From positions 5,915-69,914 of IMG/VR virus record IMGVR_UViG_3300035670_012166: a stretch of 64,000 nt of DNA. One strand, given 5' to 3'. The DNA is from a virus. Each line of letters opens with the position of its first letter. Within the stretch, counting starts at the first letter, position 1. Positions 28,918 to 55,876 of this stretch are shown piece by piece. A program made the translations under genes and the position numbers. Below the pieces are notes generated by a model. That model made no database searches, was not told the origin of the DNA, and saw only the letters and a list, made by a program, of their open reading frames with translations.

Positions 28918-29367
28918 TTATCTGTATGGTAATCTATTTTTCCAAGCATTTCCTTCGTCAACATTCTTTTGATAAGTTTCATCCCAAGAAAACTTATCAT
29001 CAATATCTTCACCTTTAGAAATAGCCATTGATGGGCTTGAAGCTGGATTGCCTGGATCTACATATGCAGGACCAGGAACATTGTCGGGACCATGTAATTG
29101 TCCTTCTATATTTTGTCCATCATCCTCTCCACCTAAATCACGATATTCTGGCACTCTTTTTCTAGGATTGATTTTTTGTCGCCAGTAATCATTATTTTCA
29201 TATTCTTCTTCTAGTTCTTCATAAGGAACTAAAGAAACATTAGGAACTTGAGTGACTGATGTTTGCGGATAATATTGAGCAATCTTTTCAAATAATTTAT
29301 CTGATTCCTTAACAAATCCACTATTATCTAAAATAGAACACACCTTAATTATGGAATTAAGTTTCAT
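28918..29367 (-). CDS. Hypothetical protein with LDxxG-type leader
   Basis: MKLNSIIKVCSILDNSGFVKESDKLFEKIAQ. Confidence 0.6.
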   Translation of the reverse strand: MKLNSIIKVCSILDNSGFVKESDKLFEKIAQYYPQTSVTQVPNVSLVPYEELEEEYENNDYWRQKINPRKRVPEYRDLGGEDDGQNIEGQLHGPDNVPGPAYVDPGNPASSPSMAISKGEDIDDKFSWDETYQKNVDEGNAWKNRLPYR

Positions 29368-30356
29368 AATGAATGTCCGCCAATTCCATAAAATGTTGAT
29401 CCATCGTAAGCTTCTTCAACACCTTTATCTTCTTTTTGATTAGAATCAATGTAATCATAATAAGAAGTAAATGTTCTATTAGGATGCATTTGTTTTTCTA
29501 GGGATGAATTAGGATCTATTTCTTTCAAAGATTGTGGTTTTGGAGCAATATCTTCAGGAGCATAAACATTAGATTTTCCATCAGGATTACCTTCTGTCAA
29601 TACTGTGTCTTTTAATAAATATTCTTGAAATCCATCATAATCAGGAGTGTTGACATTCATTAAGTCTTGTAAATAAGTGTCAAATTCTTCTCCTTCTGTC
29701 AATACTGGAGTTTTGCCCAAAGAAGGTTTGGTAAATTGAGCTTTATCAAATTCATTTCTTTCTTCAGGATATTCTTTAGTAAGTCTATTTCTTCTAGCAA
29801 CTTCATAATCTTCTGCAATACGATTAATAGAAGATTCATTAATAGCAAAATGTAATCTAGAGGGTTTATCTGGATCTTTGTAATCTTCTCTAGGATATTT
29901 AAATTCTTTATTATATTTGTGTCTATTTTCTAAAGATTGCTCCATTGTCATAATATGTTCTGGTTTAGGAGCATAATGAGTTTTGATATATTCTGGGCTG
30001 TTTTTAATTAAATCACTGACCGCATTTTCTAAAGATTGTTTGTAATTATGAAGTTGTGCTCTGAATTTAGCTCTCATTCTCTCTTCAGGAGTAAGTTCAT
30101 AAGCAATCAAATCTTCGTAATTTTTATGTTGAGGAGAAAGTCTTGTTTCTATATTTACATCTCTTGTATCTGGCTCGATGTGAGTTCTTCTTAATAACTT
30201 ATCAAAACTTGCATCTTCATCAACATATAAATTTATATCATTACCGCCTCTATTGGATCCACCTCTACCAATAGGACTACCACCTGGTTGATAAGGAGAG
30301 CCATTACCTCCGCCTCCAACGCCACCAAATTGAGCAGTACGAATATTCTTAGACAT
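29364..30356 (-). CDS. Hypothetical head-cluster protein
   Basis: 330 aa; MSKNIRTAQ followed by a Gly-rich stretch. Confidence 0.6.
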   Translation of the reverse strand: MSKNIRTAQFGGVGGGGNGSPYQPGGSPIGRGGSNRGGNDINLYVDEDASFDKLLRRTHIEPDTRDVNIETRLSPQHKNYEDLIAYELTPEERMRAKFRAQLHNYKQSLENAVSDLIKNSPEYIKTHYAPKPEHIMTMEQSLENRHKYNKEFKYPREDYKDPDKPSRLHFAINESSINRIAEDYEVARRNRLTKEYPEERNEFDKAQFTKPSLGKTPVLTEGEEFDTYLQDLMNVNTPDYDGFQEYLLKDTVLTEGNPDGKSNVYAPEDIAPKPQSLKEIDPNSSLEKQMHPNRTFTSYYDYIDSNQKEDKGVEEAYDGSTFYGIGGHSL

Positions 30357-30365
30357 AATGATTTG

Positions 30366-30390
30366 TTCTCAAGAAAATATTTTTTTACCT
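30366..30390 (-). promoter_or_regulatory. Putative late promoter AGG-N18-AGAA
   Basis: AGG taaaaaaatattttcttg AGAA. Confidence 0.6.
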
Positions 30391-32502
30391 TTACCTTCTA
30401 TTCAAATTAACCATTTTTGCTCTAGGTAATCTCACAGCAATTTTAGATGTTAAACATTCATATGAAACAGCAGCAACAGCATCACAAATATCATCTTTGT
30501 AGCCAGACAAAGCTTCGATATAATATCTTTTGCCTTTCCATTTTTTTTGCAAGAATAAAAACTGAATTTTAGCTTCTTGTATTTCATTTAATGGTTGCAA
30601 GGTATTGTTCAAGTCATAGTAAGATCCACCTGAAAGATCATAAATATCTATCCTGTCATCTCTTATCAATTGAGCAAGTTCTGTGTAAATTTTTTCTTTA
30701 TATTCTTTGTTGAATTGTCTTTCAACAATTGGAATCCTCATAGATTGCAATTTAATTAAAGAGGATTGTGAATTCCATTGATCAATACTTACTTGTTTGA
30801 ATTTAAATCTCTGATGAAGATCAATTACATAATCTTCGATATCTTTTTCTTGAACTGGTTGATTTTTAGTTTTTGGATTCCAAAAATGAATGTGATCAAT
30901 TACCACTCTTTTCAATGGTTTAAAGTCAGGGCCAATTTCACCATACATATTTTCTGTATGAGCTATAACAAGAGCGTAATAATCAGAAGTTCTTGCTGGA
31001 TCTAAATGGCAGAAATATTCAAAATGACCATCAGCAAATTCTTTTCTTTTTACCATAGACATTGATGTAAACATTCTCTCAATGTCTTCTGCAGAGAAGA
31101 TAGGATCTGAAGAAGAAGCACCAAATTCAGCTCCATATTGCATTTGAAATTCTTGAGGGTCTTTTTTCTTTTGTCCATCAAGCCAATCTTTATCAATATT
31201 AGGATTTGTAAGCCAAGTGGGAAGTCTCATAACAAGAGTGGTAGGATCTTCTTGTCTGTTTTCATGCAAATCATAAAGTAATCCAATAGGTCCTTTAGGG
31301 TTGGAAAGCATCATCATCTTTCCATCTTTACCAAATGTTGCAAGAGATGGTTTTAATTCATCATATAAGGCATAATCCACACCACTATCTGGATTATCAC
31401 CAGCCATAGCAGCTACCTCGTCCATAATTATTGACCAACAAGTTAAACCAACAAGGCCAGACGCATTACTAGAACCACACCTTAATACTAAAGATCCAGC
31501 AAATAAATTAATACCTTGATCAGATCTTCTTACATTTTCTTCTCTATCGTGTTCTGTGTAAAACCTCATTTCAAGTTCTGTATCTTTGCCAATATAAGGA
31601 GCAAAAAATGGAGAGGCTAAAACTGTTTGCTTGATTTTAGAGAAGATTGCCTTTTTAGCCTGTTCTTCATTACGAGCAACATTCAATAGAACAATCTCAT
31701 CGAATTCCATCAAGCCATATCTTGCTTGAGGATGACCCATAGAAATTAATCTGTAAAGTTCATATAGAGCCATAGCAGAAACAAGAAATGATTTTCCAGA
31801 ACGTCTACCTAGTACTAAAACAAGTTCTTCAAACTTAAATCTTTGCTTTGATTTTTGTTCTACTTGCATTCTGAGTTTAGGATCAAACTCTTCAGAATAA
31901 AGTAAATCATTTTCTGATTGATATCCATCAATTATAGGTCTAGCTTCTAAATTTTCTACTTGTCTTTCAGCATCAGGGTTAGTAGCTTCTTGTCTTGCAT
32001 ATTCATATCTAGCTTTTCTTACATCATTGTTAAGTCTAGAACATTGCAAACAAGGAGAATTAACTACATTGAAAATTGTTTTGAAATTTCTCTCTTCTTT
32101 TCTAGCTTTCAAAAAATCATTTTCATTTTTTTGAATATAGTTCCAAACACAACCTTGGCAATCAACTTCATTTTCTGTATTGTCAATTACAAGATTGGTA
32201 TTTCCTTCTTGTCCCATATAAAAACATTTTAAGATAAGTTTTTGCCAAGGATAAGGCTTAAGATTACAGAAAAAAGGGTGTTCAATAAAAGTGATAATAT
32301 CTACAATTTGATCAGGATTAAATCTATCTTTTGGTGGTTTTACAGGTGGAGCAACTTCTTGTCTAGTGGCAGGAGCAATTTCTTCATCAAAATCTCTGGC
32401 GTAAATTGTATCCTTGAAAAGCTCTTTTACTGAGTTTGCTTGTTGTAGTAATTGACTTTTTAACTCATTTGAACTTTTATTGACTTGAACTGGTTTTCTC
32501 AT
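30391..32502 (-). CDS. Terminase large subunit
   Basis: PYPWQ, Walker A GRRSGKS, Walker B IIMDE, LSNP, RNase H-like HLDPA...DDICDA. Confidence 0.9.
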   Translation of the reverse strand: MRKPVQVNKSSNELKSQLLQQANSVKELFKDTIYARDFDEEIAPATRQEVAPPVKPPKDRFNPDQIVDIITFIEHPFFCNLKPYPWQKLILKCFYMGQEGNTNLVIDNTENEVDCQGCVWNYIQKNENDFLKARKEERNFKTIFNVVNSPCLQCSRLNNDVRKARYEYARQEATNPDAERQVENLEARPIIDGYQSENDLLYSEEFDPKLRMQVEQKSKQRFKFEELVLVLGRRSGKSFLVSAMALYELYRLISMGHPQARYGLMEFDEIVLLNVARNEEQAKKAIFSKIKQTVLASPFFAPYIGKDTELEMRFYTEHDREENVRRSDQGINLFAGSLVLRCGSSNASGLVGLTCWSIIMDEVAAMAGDNPDSGVDYALYDELKPSLATFGKDGKMMMLSNPKGPIGLLYDLHENRQEDPTTLVMRLPTWLTNPNIDKDWLDGQKKKDPQEFQMQYGAEFGASSSDPIFSAEDIERMFTSMSMVKRKEFADGHFEYFCHLDPARTSDYYALVIAHTENMYGEIGPDFKPLKRVVIDHIHFWNPKTKNQPVQEKDIEDYVIDLHQRFKFKQVSIDQWNSQSSLIKLQSMRIPIVERQFNKEYKEKIYTELAQLIRDDRIDIYDLSGGSYYDLNNTLQPLNEIQEAKIQFLFLQKKWKGKRYYIEALSGYKDDICDAVAAVSYECLTSKIAVRLPRAKMVNLNRR

Positions 32503-33182
32503 TAGTTATCTTGTTGAATTTTGTTGCGAAGTATTACTATTTCATCTCTTATAATTTTTTTATCTGCTTCACTTACCATTTTTTCGTGTAAGTTAGCTAA
32601 AATTTCAAATATATTTAAATTAAAAATGCCTTGGTTGTCTCTTGAATCTTTGACTGCTAATATTTTGGTAATCAATTTTTCAACCATAGCAGCTCTTCTT
32701 AATTTCATATCAGAGTTTTTAGAACAATCAATTCCTCTCACATCATCTAATTCAACAAGCAATGCAGTAAGAGCAAGATGATGTTCTCTAAAAATCCAAG
32801 GAGCAATTAATTCTTCTCTCTGTTCATAGTTCTTAAGTCCAGATGTTGAAATTTTCTTAAGATCACAATGTTGTTCCATATGAGTGTTAATTTGCATCCA
32901 GTTAAGTTGTGCATCAAAATACTCGTGGAAGAATCTAATTACAGCTTGATTTTTTCTACCTGATTCAAGATATACGTGTTCTAATAAATCACGAAAAGGA
33001 GAAATACATAGGGAACATCTTGGTTCGATAAATTGAGGATAAGAAATATCACTCATATTATCAGGAGGAAGAGGCTTTAATGGCTTGTCTGTTTCTTTTA
33101 AATCTCTAAAATATCTTGATGGTTTTGTAGGACCTTCATTAGGAACAATTAGAGCATCAACAGTTTCTTTTTTGTCATCCAT
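32502..33182 (-). CDS. Putative terminase small subunit or Zn-binding protein
   Basis: Coupled to TerL (1-nt overlap); CxxC...H..QHC; helical C-terminus. Confidence 0.4.
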   Translation of the reverse strand: MDDKKETVDALIVPNEGPTKPSRYFRDLKETDKPLKPLPPDNMSDISYPQFIEPRCSLCISPFRDLLEHVYLESGRKNQAVIRFFHEYFDAQLNWMQINTHMEQHCDLKKISTSGLKNYEQREELIAPWIFREHHLALTALLVELDDVRGIDCSKNSDMKLRRAAMVEKLITKILAVKDSRDNQGIFNLNIFEILANLHEKMVSEADKKIIRDEIVILRNKIQQDN

Positions 33183-33200
33183 TTTTATAGTTATACAAAA

Positions 33201-33232
33201 TAAACAAGCCGCATATTATTGCGGCTTGTTTA
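33201..33232 (-). terminator. Terminator
   Basis: TAAACAAGCCGCA/TGCGGCTTGTTTA. Confidence 0.75.
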
Positions 33233-33248
33233 TTATAAAATAGAATAA

Positions 33249-33962
33249 TTAGTCAGTCAAAGCTCTTTTAAGTCTCTGATAAGGAGAAACTGTATCAGCT
33301 GCTTTTACTAAATATTCGTCAGCAAGACCAAAGTCTGCATAATTTCCTTGAATATATTTTTCACTATCAGAAGAAGCTGATGATAAATCTACTACAGCAC
33401 TTCCTCTTTTCATAGATACAACATATTTATTTTTTGAAGCTGTTTTAATTTCTGCAGTTTGTGCTTCAGCAATCAATACATTATTAAGTAAAGTTTCTTC
33501 AATAAATGGCTTTAAAGCTACGTGAAGATTATCCATACCTACTCTTGAAGATTTTGCAAGTTCAGCCCATCTTTGCCATTGGGACAAGCCTTTTTCATCT
33601 GTCTTGATTACAGAATGAGGTCCTGTACATAATCTCTTCACAAATTCTTTAGAAGATAATTTTGTCAATGTTTTTTCAATGATAGGAGCACAATCAGAAT
33701 ATCTTGTTGGAACCACTGCTACTTCAACTGCGGTATTTTCAACAGAACTTTCAACACTGTCAAATAATTTAGAAGCCACTCTGTTAGCAATTTCTAAATC
33801 AAAATTATCAGCTGCGAGTAATTCTACAACTTCAGATTTATCGAAACCTTGATTTTTATATTTTGTAGCTTGACTTTGAGCAACAACGACGACACCATCA
33901 TTATGTGATTTCAACTCGTTGCGCCAGTTGTAAATCATGTCATTTGTGTTATTTTCAGACAA
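33249..33962 (-). CDS. Hypothetical protein (possibly virion)
   Basis: 237 aa, TTG start with purine-rich RBS; RVAS and KTAS motifs. Confidence 0.55.
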   Translation of the reverse strand: MSENNTNDMIYNWRNELKSHNDGVVVVAQSQATKYKNQGFDKSEVVELLAADNFDLEIANRVASKLFDSVESSVENTAVEVAVVPTRYSDCAPIIEKTLTKLSSKEFVKRLCTGPHSVIKTDEKGLSQWQRWAELAKSSRVGMDNLHVALKPFIEETLLNNVLIAEAQTAEIKTASKNKYVVSMKRGSAVVDLSSASSDSEKYIQGNYADFGLADEYLVKAADTVSPYQRLKRALTD

Positions 33963-34022
33963 TTTCTCTTCTCCCCTTAGATTTTTTTGATCCCTACTAA
34001 CGAAAGGGCTTAATTAAATAAT

Positions 34023-34060
34023 AAAACTCCCAGACACACTTATAATGTCTTAGGAGTTTT
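34023..34060 (-). terminator. Terminator after the sigma factor gene
   Basis: AAAACTCC..AGACA/TGTCT..GGAGTTTT. Confidence 0.55.
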
Positions 34061-34107
34061 TGTGGAACATATAAATATAATACAAAAAACTTTAAAATAT
34101 ATTCCTA

Positions 34108-34671
34108 CTAAAATAAGAAGTCATCACCAAGATGTTTTTTTAACTTTTCAAGAGCTTTAGATAATCTTTTACTTAGAGCTCCTTGTGTAATATTTAATAT
34201 TTTTGCAGCTTCTTTTTGATCTATTCCATCAAAAAAATACATTTGAATTATTTGTTTATGATTATCATCTAATTGATTTATTGCATCGTGTAAACATATA
34301 ACATTTTCAATTTTATTAAATGGATCGTAGCTTTGCTCAGTAAATTTTATTTCTTCAGAATATTCTTCTTTATTCGAATATTTATCACTTACTAATCTAA
34401 ATAAAGTGATGTCTATTCTTGTTGATAAAAAATAAGAAAAATATGAGAGTTTAGGATCATATTGGTCAATTAATTTCTTGAGTGCAAAGATGCAGTCTGA
34501 TAATAGATCTTCTTTATGAGATGCAAAAGATAAATCTTTCGCCACAATTCTTTTTATTGATGATAAAAAAAGTGGCTTATAAAACTCATATAAATCAAAC
34601 AAAGCCTCTTCGTTACCAGCTTTATATTTGTGTATTAATTTGTCAATTTCTTGATATTGATCTGAAGACAT
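34108..34671 (-). CDS. Sigma-70 family RNA polymerase sigma factor (regions 2 and 4)
   Basis: YKAGNEEALFDL...DLL.....L...YDP..FSYF; LDDNHKQII.MYFFDG..QKEAAKIL.ITQGALSKRL. Confidence 0.8.
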   Translation of the reverse strand: MSSDQYQEIDKLIHKYKAGNEEALFDLYEFYKPLFLSSIKRIVAKDLSFASHKEDLLSDCIFALKKLIDQYDPKLSYFSYFLSTRIDITLFRLVSDKYSNKEEYSEEIKFTEQSYDPFNKIENVICLHDAINQLDDNHKQIIQMYFFDGIDQKEAAKILNITQGALSKRLSKALEKLKKHLGDDFLF

Positions 34672-34678
34672 ACTCTAG

Positions 34679-35677: not shown

Positions 35678-35679
35678 AA

Positions 35680-36723: not shown

Positions 36724-36791
36724 TTTCAGCTTTTCAATCTTTCCTAACAATTGAAATTTATGAAGATGATCGGATTTATTTAACTTAAATT

Positions 36792-37787: not shown

Positions 37788-37856
37788 ATAATAATCTTAC
37801 CAGTAGATGTCTCTCAAATCAAGGGTCAATAGGGATAAATGTAAAATATAAACTGT

Positions 37857-40571
37857 ATGTGGTACTCAAGAATTATCGAATCAGCAACAGCCTGGGATGT
37901 CCTTTCAACTAAAGAAGTTGCTTGGAGTGGCTCTTTTTCTAGAACTTTCAAAGATTTTTCGTTTTATGGCACAAACAATTTGCCTACTATGACAGCTATG
38001 CTTAAATTAATAGCTGAGATAGAAAAAGGTAAAAACAATGATTCTATAATTGATAAATATTTTGAAGAAGCAAAACAAAGTTCTAGTGTTTTAGCAGACA
38101 TTGTTTATTTTGCTGGTTGTTTATCAAAATTTATTGATGCTGAAATGAAAAAACAAGGTAGTTCTGCCAATACAGATATGATGAAAGTTCTTGATTTTTT
38201 AGGCAAATTAAATAGTTTTGCAAAATCTCAAGGACAAAAGGGAAATAAATTAGGAGACACGATTCCTGACCCTGAAAAGGCTAAAGCTTATGTTAATGCT
38301 ACTCTCGGCATAGGTTTTACTACACTTAATTTATTAGTCAGAAAAGGAACAGAAATCAGTAATTCTTTAGCTTTATTTATGCTCCGTGGTGATGACAAAG
38401 CATTATTAGGAGTACCTGATTCTGAACAAAGAGATTTATTACTTGAACAATTGAAAGAACAGAAGCCTGATTTAAGAAAATTTGAAAGCTACGATGCTGC
38501 AATTACAACAATTTGGAGTGGTGAAATAAAAAATCACATACCTTTGTTGAAAGATTTTCTTCTTTCAGGAATTGATCCGCCTCAAGTATTGCATATGATT
38601 ATTCAATTACTTAATCAACCAGATATTGAACAAAAAAATGTTGTCGATATGGTAATACCTTTACCCATAACAACTTTGATTGATGTACTTGATAATTTAG
38701 AGCAGCATTCCAAATATGATCCATTTTCTTCATATTTAGCAGAAAGATTATATGGTCAAATAAGTGATTATGAACTAGATACAAATCCTTTGCTTGTTGG
38801 AAAATTAAGAAGAAGTAAAAAATTTAAAGCATTTGTAGACTCCAAAGGCGATAATTGTGAGCCTTTATATATAATAAAGGGAATTGCAAAACCTGAAGTC
38901 ATAATTAGATATTTGGAAAAAAACCCAGAAGATTTTGATAAATTTGATATCAATCTCTTAAATAGTTTAGGCGATGAAATCAAAAATAAGATTATTGCTC
39001 GTGGAACTGCAGCAAAAGCAAAAATTCAATCTGATGGTTTAGCTTTGTTAGAAAAAGCTGCACAACAAAATATAATTTCAATCACAAAAGCAACAGATAC
39101 TTCTTTCAATTATGCATATGGAAAAGGTCCAAAAAACGATTTTAAACCAGAAAATATGTCTGAAAGTGAATGGAGACAAAAAAGCAAATCAGACGAAGTT
39201 TTTGAAAAATTTTATCAATCTTATGAAGATCGTATGAAGCAAGAGGCTCCTTTTGCTGGTGTCAGTGAAGAAGACATTAAAACATATGCTGATCAAATGG
39301 TCATCATAGAATTTGGTACTTACAACTTAAAAAGTTTTTTAGCAGAAAACAACGCACCAAAAATGAAAATTGGTCCTGTTGATATGCTTGATGAAAAATG
39401 GGGTGGGCTGTTTGTGCCTAGATTTCCAACAAAAGATAGAGGTCCAATTCCAGCCATATTGATCAAAACTGATATATGGAATCAACTTTCATATCACCAA
39501 GCGTTAGCACAGAACATTGGTATGAGTGATCAGCATTATGTTGAAGCTACAAGAAGACACGAAGTTGCTCACGCATTACAATATTTACAATCTGGTGATA
39601 TAACAATGCAAGATTCTATTGCATTAAATCCTGAATTAACACCAGAAGAAGCATATATTTCAAATCCATCAGAACTTTATGCAAGAATTCACGGAGATAT
39701 TCCTTATCTTGCTAAAATATTTGATGCTCATATTGGCAACTTGATGTCAGATAGAAAAATTTATCAAGCAGCCAAAGAACAATGGATTTTAGATATTCAA
39801 GATGAATTAATTCACTTGATGTCAGGTGGTACTAATGCGACCAGATTACTTGCTGATATGGAAGCTGGAAGATTTGGAACATTCACTACTGATTCTGGTC
39901 AAACAATAAAATTAACAGACCCACTTGAAGCAATTAACAAAAAATTACAGCGTCAAAGAAATAGACTTGAGATGATTTTTCACGAAACATTTCAAATTCA
40001 GGGCAGAAGAGATTTCAGAAGAGGCTTGATCAGTAAGAAAAATCAACTCCAACAACAAATACAATCTACCCCAATTTATTCTCCAGAAAGAACACATCTT
40101 GAAGAAGAATTGAAAGATGTTGAAATCAAATTGGTAGAATCAGGAAAAATGTTAATCTTTGATGTGAAAGATGTATCTGAAGCTGTAGTTGAAGGATATA
40201 TGTCTGATTACTATTCAAAGATTGCAGAAGCTGTAGCTAATGGCTTACTTACTACAGATATTGTCAATCCAGAGGGCGAAGATAGAAGATTGGAAAATGA
40301 GCAATTAAAAGAACAAGCTAAAAAGCAAGAACCTCCAACAGCTCAAGATATTAGACAACATTCTAGATTTCAAATTCAACAAACTGAACCAATTCCAAGT
40401 GGTAGAAAAATTGATGTCATTATTCCAAGATATAAGGGACCAGGAAGACCACCAGGCAATTTTCCAGGTTTTGATGATGCAGAACAAGATGAAACACAAG
40501 TTGATCTTTCTATAGAGAGAGATGAAGATAAAACTGCTAAGGTTTATAATTTGAGAAAAAGTTTAGGTTAA
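37857..40571 (+). CDS. Large MWY-leader protein with a zincin HExxH motif (putative virion cargo)
   Basis: MWYSRIIESA; RHEVAHALQ and downstream Y..NP.ELYAR. Confidence 0.55.
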   Translation: MWYSRIIESATAWDVLSTKEVAWSGSFSRTFKDFSFYGTNNLPTMTAMLKLIAEIEKGKNNDSIIDKYFEEAKQSSSVLADIVYFAGCLSKFIDAEMKKQGSSANTDMMKVLDFLGKLNSFAKSQGQKGNKLGDTIPDPEKAKAYVNATLGIGFTTLNLLVRKGTEISNSLALFMLRGDDKALLGVPDSEQRDLLLEQLKEQKPDLRKFESYDAAITTIWSGEIKNHIPLLKDFLLSGIDPPQVLHMIIQLLNQPDIEQKNVVDMVIPLPITTLIDVLDNLEQHSKYDPFSSYLAERLYGQISDYELDTNPLLVGKLRRSKKFKAFVDSKGDNCEPLYIIKGIAKPEVIIRYLEKNPEDFDKFDINLLNSLGDEIKNKIIARGTAAKAKIQSDGLALLEKAAQQNIISITKATDTSFNYAYGKGPKNDFKPENMSESEWRQKSKSDEVFEKFYQSYEDRMKQEAPFAGVSEEDIKTYADQMVIIEFGTYNLKSFLAENNAPKMKIGPVDMLDEKWGGLFVPRFPTKDRGPIPAILIKTDIWNQLSYHQALAQNIGMSDQHYVEATRRHEVAHALQYLQSGDITMQDSIALNPELTPEEAYISNPSELYARIHGDIPYLAKIFDAHIGNLMSDRKIYQAAKEQWILDIQDELIHLMSGGTNATRLLADMEAGRFGTFTTDSGQTIKLTDPLEAINKKLQRQRNRLEMIFHETFQIQGRRDFRRGLISKKNQLQQQIQSTPIYSPERTHLEEELKDVEIKLVESGKMLIFDVKDVSEAVVEGYMSDYYSKIAEAVANGLLTTDIVNPEGEDRRLENEQLKEQAKKQEPPTAQDIRQHSRFQIQQTEPIPSGRKIDVIIPRYKGPGRPPGNFPGFDDAEQDETQVDLSIERDEDKTAKVYNLRKSLG

Positions 40572-41189
40572 GTCTATATCTTTATCTTCATCATAAAATT
40601 CCCTGTCATCCACACCATTCATTTGATAATCAATGTGGGCATCAGGGAATTTTTGTCTTATTTTACTTATTGCTTCGTCTTTGCTATAATCCTCTAGTGG
40701 TAGATTAGTGGTGAAAACAACATGATGACGAATCTCTTCTGCATCTTCTTCATCACTATATAATTCTTCCAATCCAGGAATAGATAATTGATCTGTGATT
40801 AATTTGCCTTCTTTGTCAGACCCTGCTCTTAATGCCTTAAATGACAAAGGATCCATAAAGAAGAATTTCCAAACACCATTTTCAGGAAATAATAAAATTT
40901 GTGGATAAAGCTCAAAATGTTTTCTTGTGCCTTTATGTTTATCAGCAATTTGTTCAACAGGATCTTTTGAAGGATCAAAAATAAATTTATCATCACCTAA
41001 AACTTCGACAGGATCTTTGCCTTCTTTTCTTGCTCTAGTTAATGCAAAATCAGAAAATGTTTCAGGATTCTTATATACTTGGTCAAAATCTAAATCAGAA
41101 GCGTCAATAGCTACTTTGGTAAATTTATCTGCTAGTCTAAAACATCCTAAATTATCCAAAATAGATGCTGTACGAAGAAAGTTAAACAT
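40563..41189 (-). CDS. Hypothetical protein with LDxxG-type leader
   Basis: MFNFLRTASILDNLGCFRLADKFTKVA. Confidence 0.6.
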   Translation of the reverse strand: MFNFLRTASILDNLGCFRLADKFTKVAIDASDLDFDQVYKNPETFSDFALTRARKEGKDPVEVLGDDKFIFDPSKDPVEQIADKHKGTRKHFELYPQILLFPENGVWKFFFMDPLSFKALRAGSDKEGKLITDQLSIPGLEELYSDEEDAEEIRHHVVFTTNLPLEDYSKDEAISKIRQKFPDAHIDYQMNGVDDREFYDEDKDIDLT

Positions 41190-41191
41190 AC

Positions 41192-41875
41192 TTACTTCTT
41201 TGGCATTTTGTGAGAGGCATCCTTTTTCTCATCATCTTTGAATTGAACATAAACTTCGGATGCTTTTTTTCTAATTCTGGTGAGAGCATTATCAACACAT
41301 TTTGCTGGAACATTCAATGTGTAAGAAATTTCTTTATATGATGAATTGTGTCCATACTCTACAAAAATATCTGCTTCAAGAGGTGTTAATCTATCTAAAA
41401 GCATTTCAGAATTTATTTCTAATTCTTCTCTAACAATTATATCTTCTACCAAATTAACTTCAGGTGATTCATCATAAGGATTTTTCTTATCAGGAATATA
41501 ATCTCCTAAAGAATGAAAATTACCATCATCATTCAATATGAAAGGAGCATCTAAAGAAATAGAATCATTCAACGCTGAATTCTTCATTCTTTTAGCAGAA
41601 GCGATAGCAGTGGCAAGATGTCTTTTGCAAACTAAATTAACACAAAAGTTTTTGAATGTTGTGTCTTTAGTACAATCGTAGGAATTAACTGCCTTAAATA
41701 CACCTAATCTCAATTCTTGCATAACATCTTCTTTGTCTCCACCAACAATAAAGAAGTGAGGTGCAATTTTCTTGAGATCAGGTTCTACCATCTTAAGAAG
41801 TTTCTTAAATGCTACTTCGTTACCAGCTTTTGCTTTGTTTACTAATCTTACTATCTTAATATCTTCGGTTGCCAT
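41192..41875 (-). CDS. sigH: SigH-like RNA polymerase sigma factor (start likely ATG 41875)
   Basis: GGDKEDVMQE..LGVFKAV..YD....FKNF..L...R...TAI.SA.R.K...LN..ISLD; SYKEIS..L....K.VDNALTRIRKK. Confidence 0.75.
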   Translation of the reverse strand: MATEDIKIVRLVNKAKAGNEVAFKKLLKMVEPDLKKIAPHFFIVGGDKEDVMQELRLGVFKAVNSYDCTKDTTFKNFCVNLVCKRHLATAIASAKRMKNSALNDSISLDAPFILNDDGNFHSLGDYIPDKKNPYDESPEVNLVEDIIVREELEINSEMLLDRLTPLEADIFVEYGHNSSYKEISYTLNVPAKCVDNALTRIRKKASEVYVQFKDDEKKDASHKMPKK

Positions 41876-41912
41876 CAAAACTCCCGAAGGCACAAATCAT
41901 CTAAAAATCTTC

Positions 41913-44625: not shown

Positions 44626-44627
44626 AA

Positions 44628-46548: not shown

Positions 46549-47005
46549 ATTTGCACAAATATTTGGTATACATCCAAAAGAAAAAGAAGCATTGGAATTT
46601 TATGGTGAAACAGATGATCCTGTTAAGGCTGGTTATGTACTAAGCACTGGAAAATTTCTAGATTATTCTGAAGGTGGGTACGAGAGATCATTAGATCATA
46701 GAAACATTGAATATATTATGGATGAGCCAGAAGAATCTAAAGGAAGTAGATATTCTGATTATGTTGTTCCTTTTATGTCTTTAACTGGCGCAATTAGAGT
46801 TTCAAATTATGGTGAATGGAGTGTCGATATACATTCTCCTCCTACTCCTGAACAAATTACAGCTATAGCAAGAAATCATATAAATGGAAAAGATTTTCAT
46901 TATGATGTAGATCCTCTTGGAATTAGTGAAACATTACCAAGAGCTTCTCAGGAAGCAGTAGCTAATAAATTGAGAGAAATTAGAAGACAATTAATGGGCC
47001 AATAA
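46538..47005 (+). CDS. Hypothetical MWY-leader protein
   Basis: MWYRFAQ; AGY...G..LD.S...R..DHR.I...GAIR. Confidence 0.6.
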   Translation: MWYRFAQIFGIHPKEKEALEFYGETDDPVKAGYVLSTGKFLDYSEGGYERSLDHRNIEYIMDEPEESKGSRYSDYVVPFMSLTGAIRVSNYGEWSVDIHSPPTPEQITAIARNHINGKDFHYDVDPLGISETLPRASQEAVANKLREIRRQLMGQ

Positions 47006-47036
47006 AAAAGAGGGGATTTCTCCCCTCTTTTTTATT
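47001..47036. terminator. Bidirectional terminator
   Basis: AATAAAAAAGAGGGGA/TCCCCTCTTTTTTATT. Confidence 0.85.
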
Positions 47037-49477: not shown

Positions 49478-49479
49478 AA

Positions 49480-50436
49480 CTAAAAGTCCTCATCGAATGA
49501 AATTTGCTCTTGAACTTCACCAACACCACTCTTTACATAATCTGCAACACGCTTCTCAAAGAAGTTGGTCTTGTTCTGCAAAGCAATATTAGCCATAAAG
49601 TCAAAAGGGTTCTCTGTATTATATACTTTTCCTACGCCTAAGTCCATCAAAAGGCGATCAGAAACATACTCAAGATATTGTTTCATCAATTCAGAATTCA
49701 TACCAATTAAGGAAACTGGCAGTGCTTCGGTGATAAATTCTTTTTCAATTACAAGAGCAGAGTCAATAATTTCAAGAATGCGCTCACGAGAAAGCTTATT
49801 CTCAATATGATTTTTGTAGAGATGAACTGCAAAGTCTGTATGCAATCCTTCATCACGAGAAATTAATTCATTAGAGAATGAAAGACCTGGCATCAATCCA
49901 CGCTTCTTGAGCCAGAAGATACTACAGAATGAACCAGAAAAGAAAATTCCCTCTACAGCAGCAAAAGCAATAAGACGCTCCACAAATGATTCAGAGCCAA
50001 TCCACTTAAGAGCCCACTCTGCCTTCTTTTGAACAGCTGGAACTGTGTCAATGGCGTTGAAAAGATGGTTTTGCTCTTCTTTGTCTTTGATATAAGTGTC
50101 AATAAGAAGGGAGTATGTCTCGGAGTGAATATTCTCCATCATAATCTGGAAACCATAGAAGAATTTAGCTTCTGTATACTGCACTTCAGCAACAAAGTTT
50201 TCTGCTAAATTCTCATTTACAATTCCATCAGATGCAGCAAAAAAAGCTAGTACATGCTTTACAAAATGCTGTTCACCCTCGTTTAATTTTGCCCAGTCAG
50301 TAAGGTCTTGTGCTAAATCAATTTCTTCAGCAGTCCAAAAAACTTGCTGTGCTTTTTTGTAATAATCCCAAATATCGTGATGTTCAATTGGGAATAAAAC
50401 AAATCTATTTTTGTTCTCTTGTAATATTTTTTCCAT
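49480..50436 (-). CDS. nrdB: Ribonucleotide reductase class Ia, beta subunit
   Basis: [37 protein letters not shown]. Confidence 0.97.
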
Positions 50437-50518
50437 AATTTTTTGACAATAAAAAATACCTGAAAGAAATCAATCAGATATTTTTTATCCCTTCCTTTAA
50501 TAGTATGAGGTATTTGTT

Positions 50519-50956
50519 CTAATTAAGCAACTCTATCGGATCTAAATTTTTCAACTTTTTTACTAAATCTTCAAGCCTCTTTTTATATAATCTTTGAGCA
50601 ATTATATAATCCAATAATTTTTCTTTTAATAAATCTAAATCATCTTCGTTATTTTCGGCATAATCAAACACTTCATTAATTTTTTTTAAAAATGCAGCAT
50701 CAATTATGTCTTGTGCCTTTGGATTATCTGCTCGAAATCCAGACACATTAACATCCAATGAAGATAACACAAGGGATGTATTTAAGTTCCTTGAGCAGTC
50801 CAATAAAGTTTGCCAAGAATCTTTTTTGCTGATTATTTTATTCTCTTTTTCTTTGAGATTTTCCTGACTTTTGAACTTAATAATTCCATCATTTTTCTTT
50901 GAAAAATAATCTGATAAAAATTGTTTTTTCTCTTGAAGCCAACTCGTTTTGTTCAT
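50519..50956 (-). CDS. Hypothetical protein
   Basis: 145-aa ORF in operon. Confidence 0.55.
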   Translation of the reverse strand: MNKTSWLQEKKQFLSDYFSKKNDGIIKFKSQENLKEKENKIISKKDSWQTLLDCSRNLNTSLVLSSLDVNVSGFRADNPKAQDIIDAAFLKKINEVFDYAENNEDDLDLLKEKLLDYIIAQRLYKKRLEDLVKKLKNLDPIELLN

Positions 50957-50958
50957 CT

Positions 50959-51345
50959 TTATAATGCAAACTTAATATCAATAGCAAAAATTCTTGTCGA
51001 AATACCTTTAGTTTTCTTACCAGCAACATCAGCATTGTATTCTGATTGGCGGCAAACTAAAACAGAACCATTTGTTAAGCTTTCAACTTCTCGAGAAGCT
51101 AATCTAAAAGCTGTCATTGTAGCATTTAAAGCAGTAGGGCCAACAGATAAAATTCTAACATATTCGTGATCTTTAAGTACATGCAAAATACTTCTACTCA
51201 AACCTACTGGATCTGTTGGACGTTTAGTAGGATCTTCAGCATTAGGATCTCCACCTCTAGCCTTTAAGATCCTTGGGTCATTAGTGGGGTTCTTTGGTTT
51301 TTCTTTTGTAGCAATTGTGCTTACAGGTTCGTCATTTAATTCCAT
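50959..51345 (-). CDS. spoVS: SpoVS family protein
   Basis: LSRSILHVL...VRILSVGPTALNATMTAFRLA...LVC...ADVAGKKTKGI matches the SpoVS pattern (AGAIA...IQAIGAGAVNQAVKAIAIA). Confidence 0.7.
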   Translation of the reverse strand: MELNDEPVSTIATKEKPKNPTNDPRILKARGGDPNAEDPTKRPTDPVGLSRSILHVLKDHEYVRILSVGPTALNATMTAFRLASREVESLTNGSVLVCRQSEYNADVAGKKTKGISTRIFAIDIKFAL

Positions 51346-51346
51346 T

Positions 51347-52324
51347 TTAATTTTCCTCTATTCCAATCAAAGACATTTTCGTCTTTATATTTTCTACAGC
51401 CTTATTGAAATCTGTCAAGCTGCAATTGTATGTTTTTGAGTCATATTTCAATTTCGATGAACCATTTAAAATATTTGAAATAATTTTATTTTCTACATCT
51501 GATAAACTTAAATTCATAAGATTATTTATTTTATTTTCATCAGTCAAACTGTCATAGTAACAAACATCTTCATTATCATCTTCTTCAGACATATAAACAC
51601 TTAATGCTCTTGGAGAAACTGTTTGATAATCTGGATATAATTCATTAAACTTTTGAAACAACATAGAAGAATGTTTGGATAAAATGTGCTTCTTGATTAT
51701 TTCAGTTCTTTTCTTAACAATACAAATTTCACAACCACCATCTTTTGGGTTCGTGCAATCAATTTCGCATTCATAGCTTCTTGGCATTTTATGAGATTTG
51801 CAAAAACCACATCTTTCTAATTGCTCAAGAATTACACCTGTACTAACAAGATGATCCCAAAGAATATGATTATGATGATTTAAGATATGTGTTGATAGTG
51901 GATTTACCCATTTTTCACAAATTGGGCATTTTTGAGATGGATTTCTTTTACCAGCATTATCAGCTTTGACTAAATTAATATAGTTATGCTGTAATGCACC
52001 GATAAAATAATTCTTGAATTCCCCACTTCCTCCATAACGAGATACTTTTCTCGTATTGCGGGGTTTCCAATTTGATAAGACATTGCAGAAAATCTTTATA
52101 TAATCTGATGCAAAATCTTCTTGAGAATCATACAAGTAATGATATTGATTCCACCATTCTTGCATATGTAAATAAGGCGGATAAAGCTTACATACTTCTT
52201 TGTAATTACGATCTATCCGCCATTTATTTCCAGACAGTAAAGCTTCTTGATAACGTAGAATTGCCTTTTCTAAGTTCTCTTGAGTCTTAAGCTTATTCAA
52301 TCTTGTAATATCATCATTCAACAT
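51347..52324 (-). CDS. Sigma-factor-like protein with C2H2 Zn-finger insert (start likely ATG 52324)
   Basis: Region-2-like EDF......C.VL..W.P....FKNYF...L...YIN...KRN; CPIC..H...H and C..C...H....H. Confidence 0.45.
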   Translation of the reverse strand: MLNDDITRLNKLKTQENLEKAILRYQEALLSGNKWRIDRNYKEVCKLYPPYLHMQEWWNQYHYLYDSQEDFASDYIKIFCNVLSNWKPRNTRKVSRYGGSGEFKNYFIGALQHNYINLVKADNAGKRNPSQKCPICEKWVNPLSTHILNHHNHILWDHLVSTGVILEQLERCGFCKSHKMPRSYECEIDCTNPKDGGCEICIVKKRTEIIKKHILSKHSSMLFQKFNELYPDYQTVSPRALSVYMSEEDDNEDVCYYDSLTDENKINNLMNLSLSDVENKIISNILNGSSKLKYDSKTYNCSLTDFNKAVENIKTKMSLIGIEEN

Positions 52325-52374
52325 AGGTCCCTCTTTGATATTACAATTATATGAACAGTTTTTAAAATTAGAAA

Positions 52375-54171
52375 TCAAGTTGCATGTTTTATATCTTCAA
52401 TTATTAAAATAAGATTATTGTTGCCAGACCAATTGTCAAGTTCAATAGTATATATAACATCAACTTTGTCACCAACATTAAATTCTTTGCAAATATAACC
52501 TTTTCTCCAAGCATTAGCAGGAACCCAAGTTTTCTCACCATTTGATAATTTGAGTTTTGCATGTTTGCCTTGAGTTAATGGCTTTGCTTCAACTAATGTC
52601 ATATTTTTAGTTATGAATATAGGATTATGATTACCAGAACCAAATGGAGATAATTTGGATAAATGCACAAATGTTTTAATATTCAAATCACCAAACAACA
52701 TTCTGGCATCAACTTCAATTAATTTTTCAGAAGAAGGTTCACCCAATTTATCTTTAGCATATTCATTCAAGGCTTTTCTCATTGCTGGAATATTATCTAT
52801 GGCAAGCTCAAAACCAGCAGCAAAAGCATGACCACCACAAACAGTAGAACCGTCTGCTCTTTTCTTGAATAACTTCCAAGCTTCTTCTGACTTGAGAGCA
52901 TCCAAAATATTAAAATCACGAGTTGAACGACAAGAACCTTTAGCATATCCATCATTTTTATAATTACACACCAAAGTTGGTTTATTGTACATTTCAGCAA
53001 TTTTTCCAGCTATGAGACCAATTAAGCCTGGATGCCAATTAGGATCACCAAGTACAAGTATATGTTCATCTTCTAAGTTGAAATTCTGTTCAACAAAAGC
53101 AATAGCATCTTGTGTAGCTTTCTCTTGTTGTTCTTGTCTTTTAGCATTAGCATTATTTAATTGACGTGCTAAATTTGCTGCTGTTATATCGTCTTTTGCA
53201 AGCATTAAACTCAAAGCAGTACCAGCATCAGCAAGCCTACCTATAGCATTAATCCTTGGGCCAATTTGAAAGCCAATTGTAGTAGGAGTGACATCTTTTA
53301 CACCTGCTATTCTAAGTAATTCTTTGATTCCAGGTTTTCTACTATTAGACAAAATAGAACAACCATAATTTACGATTACTCTGTTCTCGTCTAACATAGG
53401 GGCAACATCAGCTACAGTCCCAAGAGCAGCAAATTCAATAAGATCATCAATGAAATCAAATAAATCTAATTCTCTGGTTTTAGCTAAAGCAAGCATTAAT
53501 TTAAAAGCAATTCCGCAACCAGCTAAAGCATCAAATGGATATCTTTTAAAATCTTCTTTAGCTAAATGCTCAAAATGTTCTCCAGGATAATTAGGGTCAT
53601 CTCTATTTGGGTTAACAACACCTATACAGTCAGGAATTTTTCCATCATCAGAAGGATGGTGGTGATCAGTTACAATCAAATCTAATCCACATTGTTTTGC
53701 ATATGTAGCAGTTTCAAAAGCAACAATTCCACAGTCAACACTCATCAACAATTTGGCATTTCTGCTTAATGCTTCATCAACAGAATGTACTTTGATGTCA
53801 TAACCATCTTCCATTCTATGAGGAACCTTATATTCAAAATTAGCTCCCATCTTTTCTAATGCTGTAACAACAATTGCGGTTGATGTAATTCCATCAACAT
53901 CGTAGTCACCCCATACAAAGATTTTTTCCTGATTGTCTATTGCTTTGTTTAGCCTGTTAACTACAACATCAACATCAGGCAAAGAAAATGGATTATGAAG
54001 TTTATTGATGTTAAGATTTAAAAAATTCTTAGCCTTTTTCTTATCATCAATACCTCTAGTAATCATCACTTGGGCAACAGGAATAGGTACTTCCAAATCA
54101 CAGGCAAGCTCTTTAACTTCCTGCATATTACAATCACGCATTTTCCAAATTGTTTCTAATCTATCCATCAA
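52375..54171 (-). CDS. recJ: ssDNA 5'-3' exonuclease RecJ (DHH)
   Basis: GDYDVDG, PHRMEDGY, SVDCGI, TDHHH, GTVADV, GSCRS, GGHAFAAG, PFG.GN..P.F. Confidence 0.92.
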   Translation of the reverse strand: MMDRLETIWKMRDCNMQEVKELACDLEVPIPVAQVMITRGIDDKKKAKNFLNLNINKLHNPFSLPDVDVVVNRLNKAIDNQEKIFVWGDYDVDGITSTAIVVTALEKMGANFEYKVPHRMEDGYDIKVHSVDEALSRNAKLLMSVDCGIVAFETATYAKQCGLDLIVTDHHHPSDDGKIPDCIGVVNPNRDDPNYPGEHFEHLAKEDFKRYPFDALAGCGIAFKLMLALAKTRELDLFDFIDDLIEFAALGTVADVAPMLDENRVIVNYGCSILSNSRKPGIKELLRIAGVKDVTPTTIGFQIGPRINAIGRLADAGTALSLMLAKDDITAANLARQLNNANAKRQEQQEKATQDAIAFVEQNFNLEDEHILVLGDPNWHPGLIGLIAGKIAEMYNKPTLVCNYKNDGYAKGSCRSTRDFNILDALKSEEAWKLFKKRADGSTVCGGHAFAAGFELAIDNIPAMRKALNEYAKDKLGEPSSEKLIEVDARMLFGDLNIKTFVHLSKLSPFGSGNHNPIFITKNMTLVEAKPLTQGKHAKLKLSNGEKTWVPANAWRKGYICKEFNVGDKVDVIYTIELDNWSGNNNLILIIEDIKHAT

Positions 54172-54926
54172 TATGCCCTTATAACCAGTTTTTTCTTATT
54201 ATTCGCAATCAAATTCTGTATCGTTTCATCTAAGAAAGATACATCATATTTTTGAGCAAAATCATCAGGATCTAAGCCTTGTGGCAAAATTATCCTTATA
54301 GCATTCAGTCCTAGATCTTCTATCTTACTAATGATTTTTTCTGAAGCAATTTTTCCAGCATCATCACTGTCCATTAATACCACGAGATTATCGCAAAATC
54401 TTGAAGCTAAAGCTACTTGATGTTCAGAAATAGCAGTTCCACACAAAGCTGCAACATTTTCTAGTCCATTATCATAAAGTGAATAAACATCAAAATAGCC
54501 TTCAGTAAGAATAAGATAATTCTTTTCTCTTGCCATTGTTTTTGCTACATCAAGAAAAAATAAATTTTTGTTTTTATGGTAAGGTTCATTTATCCATTTA
54601 CCTTTATTCCATTTATTTATTCTGTCTGAGCATTTAGCAGGTTCATGTCCATAAAGATCCCAAAATGCTTGCACTGTATGTTCTTTTAATTCTGGAATTT
54701 GCCTACCAGCTAATGCCAAAAAATTACCGTGAACATCTTTGATTGGAACTATTAATCTGCCTTTCAATAATGGAAATTCATATCTAGAATAAACTGGGCA
54801 AAAACCAATCAGATTGTTTTCAATTATTTTATTAGACAAATTTCTAGTTTTAAAATATTCTTGAACAGTATGATTATCTTTGAAGTTTCTTAAGAATTGA
54901 TTGTAGTTTATTTCAAAGCTGTTCAT
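54168..54926 (-). CDS. dnaG: DNA primase catalytic core (DnaG Toprim) lacking the Zn-binding domain
   Basis: GRLIVPI.D..G....AGR, K.IN, TEGYFDV, A..GTA, MDSDDAG. Confidence 0.85.
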   Translation of the reverse strand: MNSFEINYNQFLRNFKDNHTVQEYFKTRNLSNKIIENNLIGFCPVYSRYEFPLLKGRLIVPIKDVHGNFLALAGRQIPELKEHTVQAFWDLYGHEPAKCSDRINKWNKGKWINEPYHKNKNLFFLDVAKTMAREKNYLILTEGYFDVYSLYDNGLENVAALCGTAISEHQVALASRFCDNLVVLMDSDDAGKIASEKIISKIEDLGLNAIRIILPQGLDPDDFAQKYDVSFLDETIQNLIANNKKKLVIRAY

Positions 54927-55003
54927 TTGAATAATTGTATCATTAAAGGGGGATTTGCAGAAACATAGGAAAAAAATACTATCCTTTTTTATGCAGGTAT
55001 TTT

Positions 55004-55876
55004 ATGAAGAAAAATTTGTTAGATCAATTAAATGCTGAAATTACGTTATTAGAAAATTATGGCTATTACAAATCAGCAAGTATTCTTCATAAAAAATTTA
55101 TTCGAGAAGCACAAGTAGACCCTATATCTTATGACAAAGAACCTAGAGGAGATACTTATAAAAAGTATTTCTATAATCTTTTAAATTCTGCACAAAAAGC
55201 ACAAGATATAGAAGCAGCTAAAAATGCTATCAGAAGAGATGGTTTTTTATTAGAAGAAGATAAACAACAACTTATCGGTATGCTGCCTCAAAGTGTCCAA
55301 GCTAAACCTAACACTACTCCTGTTGCTACTACTGCTAATCCTGCTACTCCTACAAATCAGTCTACAGTAACACCAACAAATACTACAGAAATCGTAGAAC
55401 TAGCAAATGTTACACCAATAACAAGCCAACCTCAACAACCTCAACAACAATTGGCAGATCCTTCGCAAAATTTATTCAACAAATTATTGAATGAAGCAAA
55501 GTATTATCTTTCAATAAATGATTTTAATAATGCAGCTACTATAAGACAACAAGCAGCAGAATCTGAGATGTACCAAAACCAAAAAATTGCTTGGGAACAA
55601 CAATACAATATACTTGTTCAAAATTATTCTGGCACTGCTCCAAATAACCAAGCAAGCCCTCAGTACAATGCTCAAAATCAAGCTCAAAGTGATATATATA
55701 ATGCTGCAAAATCTATCGGGCTTGAGTATATCACTCCTGCAAATATTGCTTTTAGGGAACAACAAATTAGGCAAAAACTTTATCAATCAGGTAAGTTGAA
55801 CGCTAATACTCAGCAACTATTAAGACAAATTTCTCTTTCAGCTTACTATATTTCCAACCCCCAATCAAAAAAATAA
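55004..55876 (+). CDS. Hypothetical Q/T/P-rich protein with LDxxG-type leader
   Basis: ...LLENYGYYKSASILHKKFIREAQ. Confidence 0.6.
   Translation: MKKNLLDQLNAEITLLENYGYYKSASILHKKFIREAQVDPISYDKEPRGDTYKKYFYNLLNSAQKAQDIEAAKNAIRRDGFLLEEDKQQLIGMLPQSVQAKPNTTPVATTANPATPTNQSTVTPTNTTEIVELANVTPITSQPQQPQQQLADPSQNLFNKLLNEAKYYLSINDFNNAATIRQQAAESEMYQNQKIAWEQQYNILVQNYSGTAPNNQASPQYNAQNQAQSDIYNAAKSIGLEYITPANIAFREQQIRQKLYQSGKLNANTQQLLRQISLSAYYISNPQSKK

Follow-up and report, generated by a model that had tools for sequence, protein, structure and literature searches.

What do three otherwise dissimilar proteins of an uncultured giant phage gain from beginning with similar stretches of about 30 residues? The proteins are encoded in a stretch of 64,000 nucleotides (positions 5,915 to 69,914 of viral record IMGVR_UViG_3300035670_012166), referred to here as the window. 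A sequence-only reading had proposed that they share a leader, folded as a helical hairpin and ending in a cleavage site, followed by unrelated sequence. All three open reading frames are present with the N-termini it quoted, K/R-x-A occurs near the end of each leader, and BLASTP with the leader masked found no similarity among the proteins, which fall into separate clusters. In window coordinates, the proteins and their hairpins are as follows.

28918 to 29367, minus strand: P0001, 149 aa, N-terminal hairpin module, then an acidic Gly/Pro-rich body.
29275 to 29358, minus strand: hairpin module of P0001, about residues 4-31, ending K-I-A-Q, from HMM matches and AlphaFold2.
40563 to 41189, minus strand: P0002, 208 aa, N-terminal hairpin module and a highly conserved acidic body.
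41106 to 41189, minus strand: hairpin module of P0002, residues 1-28, from profile matches and the family consensus.
55004 to 55876, plus strand: P0003, 290 aa, N-terminal sister-class hairpin and a Q/N/P/T-rich body, between the primase and UvsX genes.
55010 to 55114, plus strand: sister-class ("P3") hairpin of P0003, residues 3-37, ending R-E-A-Q, of a class that recurs in relatives G001 and G004.

The proposal of one N-terminus common to all three proteins holds for P0001 and P0002, whose resemblance exceeds chance in profile searches. These two share a module of about 30 residues with the approximate pattern h-h-K-(I/V)-A-x-x-L-D-x-x-G-x-Y-x-x-(A/S)-D-K-h-x-K-h-A-Q. A profile built from leaders of the P0002 family only, searched against the 511 open reading frames of the 120-kb genome, ranked P0002 first; directly after it came C-terminal matches in two other proteins (E 0.009 and 0.016) and the N-terminus of P0001 (E 0.047). 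The P0002 family comprises 270 homologues, with 73-94% identity over the full length among the 120 matches listed, and its module has the consensus M-x-x-F-L-R-T-A-S-I-L-D-n-L-G-c-F-K-L-A-D-k-F-T-K-V-A-I, ending K-V-A-I-D without the Q. P0003 is a weaker case. It was undetected by every main-class profile tried, and hhalign of the P3 class against the main class gave P 0.0009-0.0015 at a probability of 17-23%. P0003 is thus described as belonging to a sister class with the same layout rather than as a proven member, and the sequence comparison weakly supports homology between the classes. A related-loci scan with UvsX gave nothing informative, being largely an Asp-run pattern.

The predicted fold agrees with the proposed hairpin. 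AlphaFold2 modeled residues 1-34 of P0001 alone with a pLDDT of 89.9 as two helices (3-15 and 19-32), which corresponds to the helix-turn-helix unit of about 34 residues found in tetratricopeptide repeats (TPRs). The full-length model of P0002 also placed helices at 4-13 and 17-29, but its mean pLDDT was 48, a confidence insufficient for fold searching. The module profile matches P0131 and P0166, true TPR_10/TPR_12 proteins, of which P0131 scores TPR_10 at E 4.6e-34. Fungal NB-ARC/TPR_10 proteins are among its matches, which places the similarity to bona fide TPRs at the profile level, and one carrier has sub-threshold TPR_1/2/7/8 matches located on its module. Because the profile cross-matches true TPR_10/12 repeats, the module is read as a single TPR-like hairpin. 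It shares with the TPR_10/TPR_12 repeats of the kinesin-light-chain type the pattern h-x-x-L-A-x-x-L-D-x-x-G-x-Y-x-E-A and a predicted helix-turn-helix, but those repeats normally form arrays of three or more, whereas a phage carrier has a single terminal module, sometimes two, and lacks the tandem array of at least three repeats that makes a TPR superhelix. No Pfam TPR match at E≤0.001 was found in the 96 carriers examined, none of which reaches a TPR gathering score, and P0001-P0003 were assigned to no Pfam family. Foldseek with the 34-residue model returned nothing significant, the top non-significant matches being TPR/PPR proteins. When the PDB was searched by sequence, using the module profile and P0002 as queries, a chance match of 12 residues to yeast Rsc2 was all that appeared. 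ESM Atlas searches with P0002 and with a 933-aa carrier gave no usable match, and literature searches turned up no description of the tag. TPR hairpins are protein-binding units.

Beyond the window, the module proved far more widespread than the three proteins suggested. In the same genome it lies at the C-termini of two large proteins, and across five related records at least 19 carrier families lack BLAST similarity to each other once the module is masked. Six-frame searches of relatives gave module-profile E-values down to 1e-14, and in a search of 1.84 billion representatives a profile of 24 modules matched 350 protein clusters at E≤0.001, so the view of a portable module on dissimilar proteins is strongly supported. 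Relatives of 316-358 kb hold 10-25 copies each, and a second giant-phage lineage of different GC content holds at least 20. In the near-complete relative G001 the tag occurs on 25 of 411 called genes (about 6%), scattered over 56-299 kb. This phage and its relatives form a clade of uncultured giant phages, abundant in freshwater samples, whose capsid protein links it to Bacillus phage G. Phage G itself gave no match to the module, a tblastn search of 50,697 cultured-phage records with two carriers turned up nothing relevant, and the region had no megablast match among cultured phages.

The position of the module is mostly terminal. Among the top single-copy representatives it lies within the first 15 residues in 83 of 101 and at the C-terminus in 16. 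Three proteins (P0171, P0190, and P0244) have it at both ends, P0218 has it in tandem, and elsewhere it sits between fused units; a 511-aa open reading frame of G001 with two modules corresponds to two separate genes (218 and 216 aa) in G004. The cargo is mostly small and strongly acidic, with no known domains. Pfam and PHROGs searches of the three proteins, their neighbors, the two large C-terminal carriers, and 10 plus 96 further carriers yielded no informative family, and none of the carriers is known as a virion protein. In orthologous families, conservation is about 50-64% for the module (counted by eye) compared with 69-77% for the cargo. Taken as established are the module, its predicted fold, its portability, and its terminal position; the tag is a self-contained helix-turn-helix of about 30 residues with the pattern of one TPR repeat. 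The first reading is amended to this extent: the tag is a TPR-like portable domain that goes beyond a leader, and the third example stands in a sister class. Several other functions were considered and dropped: a membrane anchor or signal, as the cargo lacks hydrophobic segments; a 5′ element acting at the nucleic-acid level, as C-terminal copies exist and conservation is at the protein level; and a type VII secretion-like Y-x-x-x-D signal, a resemblance with no supporting context.

Three further genes give context.

30391 to 32502, minus strand: large terminase gene (TerL), first gene of the operon containing P0001.
41192 to 41893, minus strand: sigma-70-family factor gene, the same-strand neighbor just upstream of P0002.
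16277 to 20428, minus strand: gene for a 1383-aa protein with an N-terminal head-maturation protease domain and five [KR]-h-A-[QS] motifs.

In all relatives P0001 keeps its position in the TerL/head operon, two genes downstream of TerL. It begins where the preceding gene (29364-30356) stops, the two overlapping, and on that basis it is probably co-transcribed with the TerL operon.

The preferred reading, a tentative one, is that the hairpin is a docking tag on diverse cargo, with the head interior as the likeliest partner and trimming of many carriers by the head protease. The clade would attach the hairpin to one end of many unrelated, mostly small acidic proteins, and the hairpin would bring this different cargo to one common partner, most likely the inside of the assembling head, that is, the scaffold/protease polyprotein, the coat (12855-13709), or the portal (20555-22915). 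Procapsid assembly would then take up the tagged proteins, and the head protease may cut many of them at K-h-A-Q/S motifs that lie inside the tag and at its end. Addressing to the capsid is plausible, and the 1383-aa protease-domain protein is a candidate source of any trimming activity. Counted in favor of a head destination are the fixed place of P0001 in the TerL/head operon, the usual (A/S)-Q ending of the tag, and the likeness of the arrays of small variable tagged genes to the internal-protein locus of T4. The motif [KR][ILVTM]A[QS] occurs 33 times in this genome against 7.7 expected, a 4-fold over-representation, and is concentrated in the protease polyprotein (five sites, P 1e-5), a neighboring 563-aa head protein encoded at 14429-16120 (four), and the portal (three), with P-values that are optimistic because it was in these very proteins that the motif was first noticed. 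The concentration is repeated in G001, and the sites are conserved. The likeness of the K-h-A-Q ending to this motif of the head protease polyprotein and portal may be counted, at the level of sequence, as indirect support for head loading and trimming.

The proposed cleavage site at the leader end fits in part. In its favor, an (A/S)-Q ending is found in 52 of the 83 top representatives with a single N-terminal copy, and the related motif is concentrated in head proteins as described; on the other side stand the C-terminal, both-end, tandem, and between-unit copies and the P0002 family ending. In G001 the strict motif falls within the first 45 residues in only 7 of 25 carriers. The C-terminal, both-end, tandem, and internal copies are easier to reconcile with a docking domain that is kept than with a leader that is cleaved off. 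Also counted against head loading are these observations: the carriers include no known virion protein and by tblastn no cultured phage has the tag, so that proteomic support is lacking; carriers occur genome-wide, with P0002 beside a sigma factor and P0003 beside replication genes, and most cargo is strongly acidic, whereas the internal proteins of T4 are basic.

Known head-targeting systems offer partial parallels. The capsid targeting sequence (CTS) of T4 is about 10 residues long, strictly N-terminal, and removed at L/I-x-E, the site of the gp21 protease. It alone is conserved in the T4 internal-protein locus (PMC3012670) and, on IPI-III and Alt, resembles the module as a short terminal tag common to unrelated fast-evolving small proteins, some in variable arrays, in being their sole conserved part, and in having a protease-type motif at its end (PMC3012670). 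The module is likewise found as an N-terminal tag on unrelated proteins, but at about 30 residues and with an ending of K-h-A-Q or variants it departs from the T4 type; it is also a TPR-like hairpin that occurs C-terminally, in duplicate, and internally, and it has no sequence similarity to the CTS. In the P22 scaffolding protein, a C-terminal helix-turn-helix of about 30 residues binds coat inside the procapsid and can carry foreign cargo. This domain resembles the module in size, in terminal position, and in the predicted hairpin of two helices, but in P22 it is on one protein only and has no sequence similarity to the module. Foldseek did return P22 procapsid chain 8i1v_H, at a non-significant E of 5.2 that any helical hairpin would give. 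In the giant phages SPN3US and phiKZ many head-internal proteins are reported to be processed by the prohead protease at a short consensus motif (PMC5694885, PMC10052503). Their propeptides are not known to be one shared folded unit, and their cleavage motif, S/A/G-x-E, differs from that of the module.

Quite possibly, if somewhat doubtful on balance, the hairpin is instead retained as a docking or oligomerization domain for a hub outside the capsid. A complex of the phage or the host that serves transcription, replication, or host takeover could be such a hub, or different carriers might bind one another through their hairpins. The TPR-like fold is in keeping with this, as are the copies at C-termini, at both ends, in tandem, and between units, which give bivalent or multivalent proteins. 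So too are the co-transcription of P0002 with the sigma factor, the place of P0003 between primase and UvsX, the dispersal of carriers and their occurrence in arrays typical of accessory genes, acidic or disordered cargo without enzyme domains, and rare 12-14-mers shared upstream of some carriers, which suggest co-regulation. A non-capsid hub leaves unexplained the recurrent (A/S)-Q ending and its likeness to the head-protein motif, and P0001 is fixed in the head/packaging operon.

A broader proposal, which is unlikely, is that the phage encodes an intracellular sorting system to which the hairpin is the key. In each genome about 25 different proteins, some of them bivalent, would each plug one TPR-like hairpin into a common receptor or into one another, and K-h-A-Q/S would allow release by the head protease. 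The dedicated assembly built or populated in this way might be the interior of the capsid, or else a compartment or scaffold outside it.

It is improbable that the carriers have no common partner and that the hairpin is a small stabilizing or solubilizing cap, or a self-dimerizing handle, spread by duplication and recombination of gene 5′ cassettes. Carriers do sit in tandem arrays, some with shared upstream sequence, which shows cassette duplication, and within orthologous families the module is conserved no better than its cargo. Yet the positions L-D, G, Y, and A/S-D are kept across at least 19 families, two lineages, and 350 clusters, which points to a constraint acting on all of them, for example a binding surface in common, and 5′ cassettes cannot explain the C-terminal copies. 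Chance resemblance, or descent as three simple paralogues, is scarcely credible and already refuted for P0001 and P0002: the lack of P0003 detection by main-class profiles favors it, but the HMM matches reach far beyond the three proteins at the E-values and cluster numbers given above, the module's place at protein ends departs strongly from randomness, and the homology stops short of the full length, with no similarity remaining outside the module.

Giant phages encode hundreds of genes with no assigned function, and one tag groups a large block of them into one functional class. The tag also points to one partner that could be fished with a bait of 30 residues. If it loads the head, it would mark which proteins enter the host along with the DNA and provide a handle for loading chosen cargo; if it docks elsewhere, it would reveal an organizing hub of giant-phage infection. 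Should the sorting-system proposal be true, the tag could address arbitrary cargo in giant phages.

The virus contig, of which the window takes up bases 5915-69914, is 120,181 bp long; the window itself has ~32% G+C and no tRNA genes were found in it. Besides two sigma factors, a primase and a UvsX-type recombinase, it encodes the following head genes and the three proteins at issue.

Head genes and module-bearing proteins in the window
12855-13709, minus strand, major head protein, 284 aa
16277-20428, minus strand, 1383-aa protein with an N-terminal head-protease domain (protease polyprotein)
20555-22915, minus strand, portal
28918-29367, minus strand, P0001, 149 aa
30391-32502, minus strand, large terminase (TerL)
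40563-41189, minus strand, P0002, 208 aa
55004-55876, plus strand, P0003, 290 aa

The major head protein shares 48% identity with gp27 of Bacillus phage G, and DNA-level comparison with cultured phages gave no close match. IMG/VR relatives are many, among them 316- and 358-kb contigs (88-89% complete); given such large, near-complete relatives and no close cultured phage, the contig is part of the genome of an uncultured giant phage. G001, the 358-kb relative, has a major head protein (40449-41300 there) with 99% identity to the window's, whereas identity for the same genome pair is only 69-77% for P0001 and P0002 and 85% for TerL, a contrast due to mosaicism or, alternatively, to a coat under very strong constraint. 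Directly adjoining the major head protein gene is that of a 403-aa endonuclease/HNH protein (11595-12806), possibly a homing endonuclease.

The three proteins carry exactly the N-termini quoted in the sequence-only reading. Six instances of the strict pattern [ILVM][LIVM][DE]-N-x-G are present in the genome's 511 ORFs, and three of them begin at residues 10-15 of P0001, P0002, and P0003. Unrelated sequence was said to follow the leader, and with leaders masked the three indeed form separate BLASTP clusters, which excludes paralogy. P0002 has 270 homologues, and the 120 listed share 73-94% full-length identity and all keep the leader. A profile from P0002-family leaders alone was searched against all ORFs of the genome. 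Behind P0002 itself, its best matches were to two neighbouring large proteins close to the end of the contig, at their C-termini (E 0.009 and 0.016), and to P0001, at its N-terminus (E 0.047); P0003 was not matched.

Carriers with a C-terminal module, outside the window
Genome 115779-120174 (L001:10780-15181), two proteins, one of 933 aa and one of >533 aa that is truncated where the contig ends

Both copies come after an acidic linker and have the core K-I-A-Q-K-L-D...Y-x-L-A-D-K-h-T. The 933-aa carrier starts with M-F-N-N-R-I-V-I-A-Q, a short leader of the other ('MWY') class, and relatives have two or three similar genes in tandem (~910-1010 aa).

Profile searches, proposed as a check on the three leaders, extended the module far beyond them. 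A 12-sequence profile run in six frames on five related records (E<=1) gave 16, 10, 4, 7, and 1 matches, nearly all at the extreme start or end of an ORF, and the masked carriers comprise at least 19 families without BLAST similarity to one another. A 24-sequence alignment reads M-x-(K/N)-h-h-K-(I/V/L)-(A/C)-x-x-L-D-x-x-G-x-Y-x-x-(A/S)-D-K-h-x-K-h, and 350 clusters out of 1.84 billion representatives match its profile (E<=0.001).

Arrangement of the module in the best 150 of the 350 matching clusters
83, one copy within the first 15 residues
16, one copy at the C-terminus
2, one internal copy
32, several copies 75-440 residues apart
16, closely spaced copies

Some multi-copy proteins are bracketed, with a module at either end. 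In G001, read completely, 25 of the 411 called genes are carriers, eight of which form an array within a run of successive genes at 145.5-151.7 kb. The 12-mer AGTAGAATAWAT is present three times in the 358 kb of G001 (192751, 195216, 208981), always 17-34 bp upstream of a carrier start, and TTGTAAAAATAAAT twice (146835, 198775), both upstream of carriers; these repeats may reflect a common promoter or duplication of a 5' cassette. The module is also found, in at least 20 copies, in G006, a second giant-phage lineage (223 kb; ~44% G+C over the 20 kb that were read), where no homologue of the window's major head protein could be detected. Twelve small minus-strand carrier genes form one ~9-kb array there (L157, G006:46000-65999), each starting M-(I/L)-x-E-L-I-K-L-A-x-x-L-D-x-K-G-L-x-K-E-A-D-Y-L-D. 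No module was found in phage G, nor did tblastn with two carriers find anything in cultured phages.

Ten carriers tested against Pfam and PHROG matched no family, and 96 carriers from the representative search matched only seven, one protein each (AP2 domain, ferritin-like domain, zinc ribbons, and weak others). No membrane-type hydrophobic segment occurs in the G001 cargo parts; pI is below 6 in 17 of the 25 carriers' cargo, and Asp+Glu reaches 25-41% in some.

The suggested helical hairpin is supported by AlphaFold2, which places helices at residues 3-15 and 19-32 of P0001 (residues 1-34, 24-sequence alignment; mean pLDDT 89.9); whole P0002 folds poorly (pLDDT 48), yet the same two helices are visible. 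Closely spaced profile matches include fungal NB-ARC proteins with Pfam TPR_10/TPR_12 repeats reading ...N-N-L-A-x-V-L-D-S-Q-G-K-Y-E-E-A-E...; one protein of this type, P0131, matches TPR_10 at E 4.6e-34. On one phage carrier TPR_1/2/7/8 match the module, all sub-threshold, and TPR and PPR proteins head the Foldseek list for the hairpin model, none significant. By the predicted hairpin and the TPR cross-matches, the module is a single TPR-like hairpin which, unlike a TPR domain, scores below the Pfam threshold and stands without an array of repeats.

P0003 is treated as carrying a sister class of the same layout, K-L-x-Q-L-N-x-x-I-x-L-L-E-x-x-G-x-x-K-A-A-E-x-L-H-K-K-F-I-K-E-A-Q, which recurs in relatives between primase and UvsX. 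A 511-aa ORF of G001 (L116:1321-2856) has two such modules, the relative G004 (L113:1354-2663) has one each in a pair of neighbouring genes (218 and 216 aa), and P0003 retains just one plus a C-terminal domain, so that tag-plus-cargo units fuse, split, and reshuffle among relatives. At the position of P0003, two other relatives have a gene with a main-class module on a Q/G/P-rich body without BLAST similarity to P0003. Weak G001 matches mix features of both classes, and profile-profile comparison gives P 0.0009-0.0015 and a probability of 17-23%; the two classes are likely homologous.

A leader ending in a cleavage site had also been proposed, and this stands only in part. An (A/S)-Q ending is found in 52 of 83 single N-terminal copies, most commonly D-K-L-F-K-I-A-Q, after which sequences diverge; helix 1 too usually has (K/R)-(I/T/V)-A-(S/Q). 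The motif [KR][ILVTM]A[QS], originally read off these very proteins, occurs 33 times in the genome against 7.7 expected, a 4-fold excess, with seven sites in proteins' first 40 residues against 1.1 expected.

Sites of [KR][ILVTM]A[QS]
16277-20428, protease polyprotein, 5 sites (Poisson P 1e-5)
Within 14429-22915, 563-aa head protein adjoining the polyprotein, 4 sites
20555-22915, portal, 3 sites
33249-33962, 237-aa protein just upstream of the TerL operon, 2 sites

G001 follows the same trend (69 against 24 expected; six in the polyprotein), and 12 of 14 sites are conserved or conservatively varied between the two genomes. The motif is thus a candidate prohead-protease site, and its excess fits one common to head proteins and tags, indirectly supporting capsid loading. 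Against a general leader, the P0002-family module ends K-V-A-I-D, and no simple leader can account for copies that are C-terminal, double, or internal; in G001 the strict motif lies within the first 45 residues of only 7 of the 25 carriers. Head-cluster proteins at 29364-30356 and 22949-23476 start M-S-K-N-I-R-T-A-Q and M-W-Y-K-Q-I-L-A-Q, resembling the hairpin's first helix (h-h-K/R-h-A-S/Q); short leaders and hairpin tag may have one common recognition motif.

Head loading with partial trimming is ranked first, tentatively, because P0001 lies in the head operon and because of the motif statistics and analogies with P22 and T4. The P22 scaffold protein bears a hairpin, which would be closely analogous to the module as a head-loading tag. 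The capsid targeting sequence is the sole conserved part at the T4 internal-protein locus (PMC3012670), a close analogy to a tag on differing cargo, by which packaging may be supposed here. Nearly as likely, though also short of an even chance, the hairpin would be a retained docking or self-association domain for a non-capsid hub, given the bivalent and multi-unit carriers, their dispersal over the genome, the acidic cargo, and the transcription and replication genes to which P0002 and P0003 are linked.

Several points are new here: the TPR-like identity, the setting apart of P0003, motif statistics for the whole genome, copies that sit C-terminally, at both protein ends, or where units are fused, and the second lineage with the module. 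Within orthologous families cargo is conserved at least as well as the module (69% against ~50% identity, the latter counted by eye, for P0001 and its G001 orthologue); across families, the conserved element is the module pattern, which sequence and structure prediction show as a portable TPR-like hairpin with a putative docking role.
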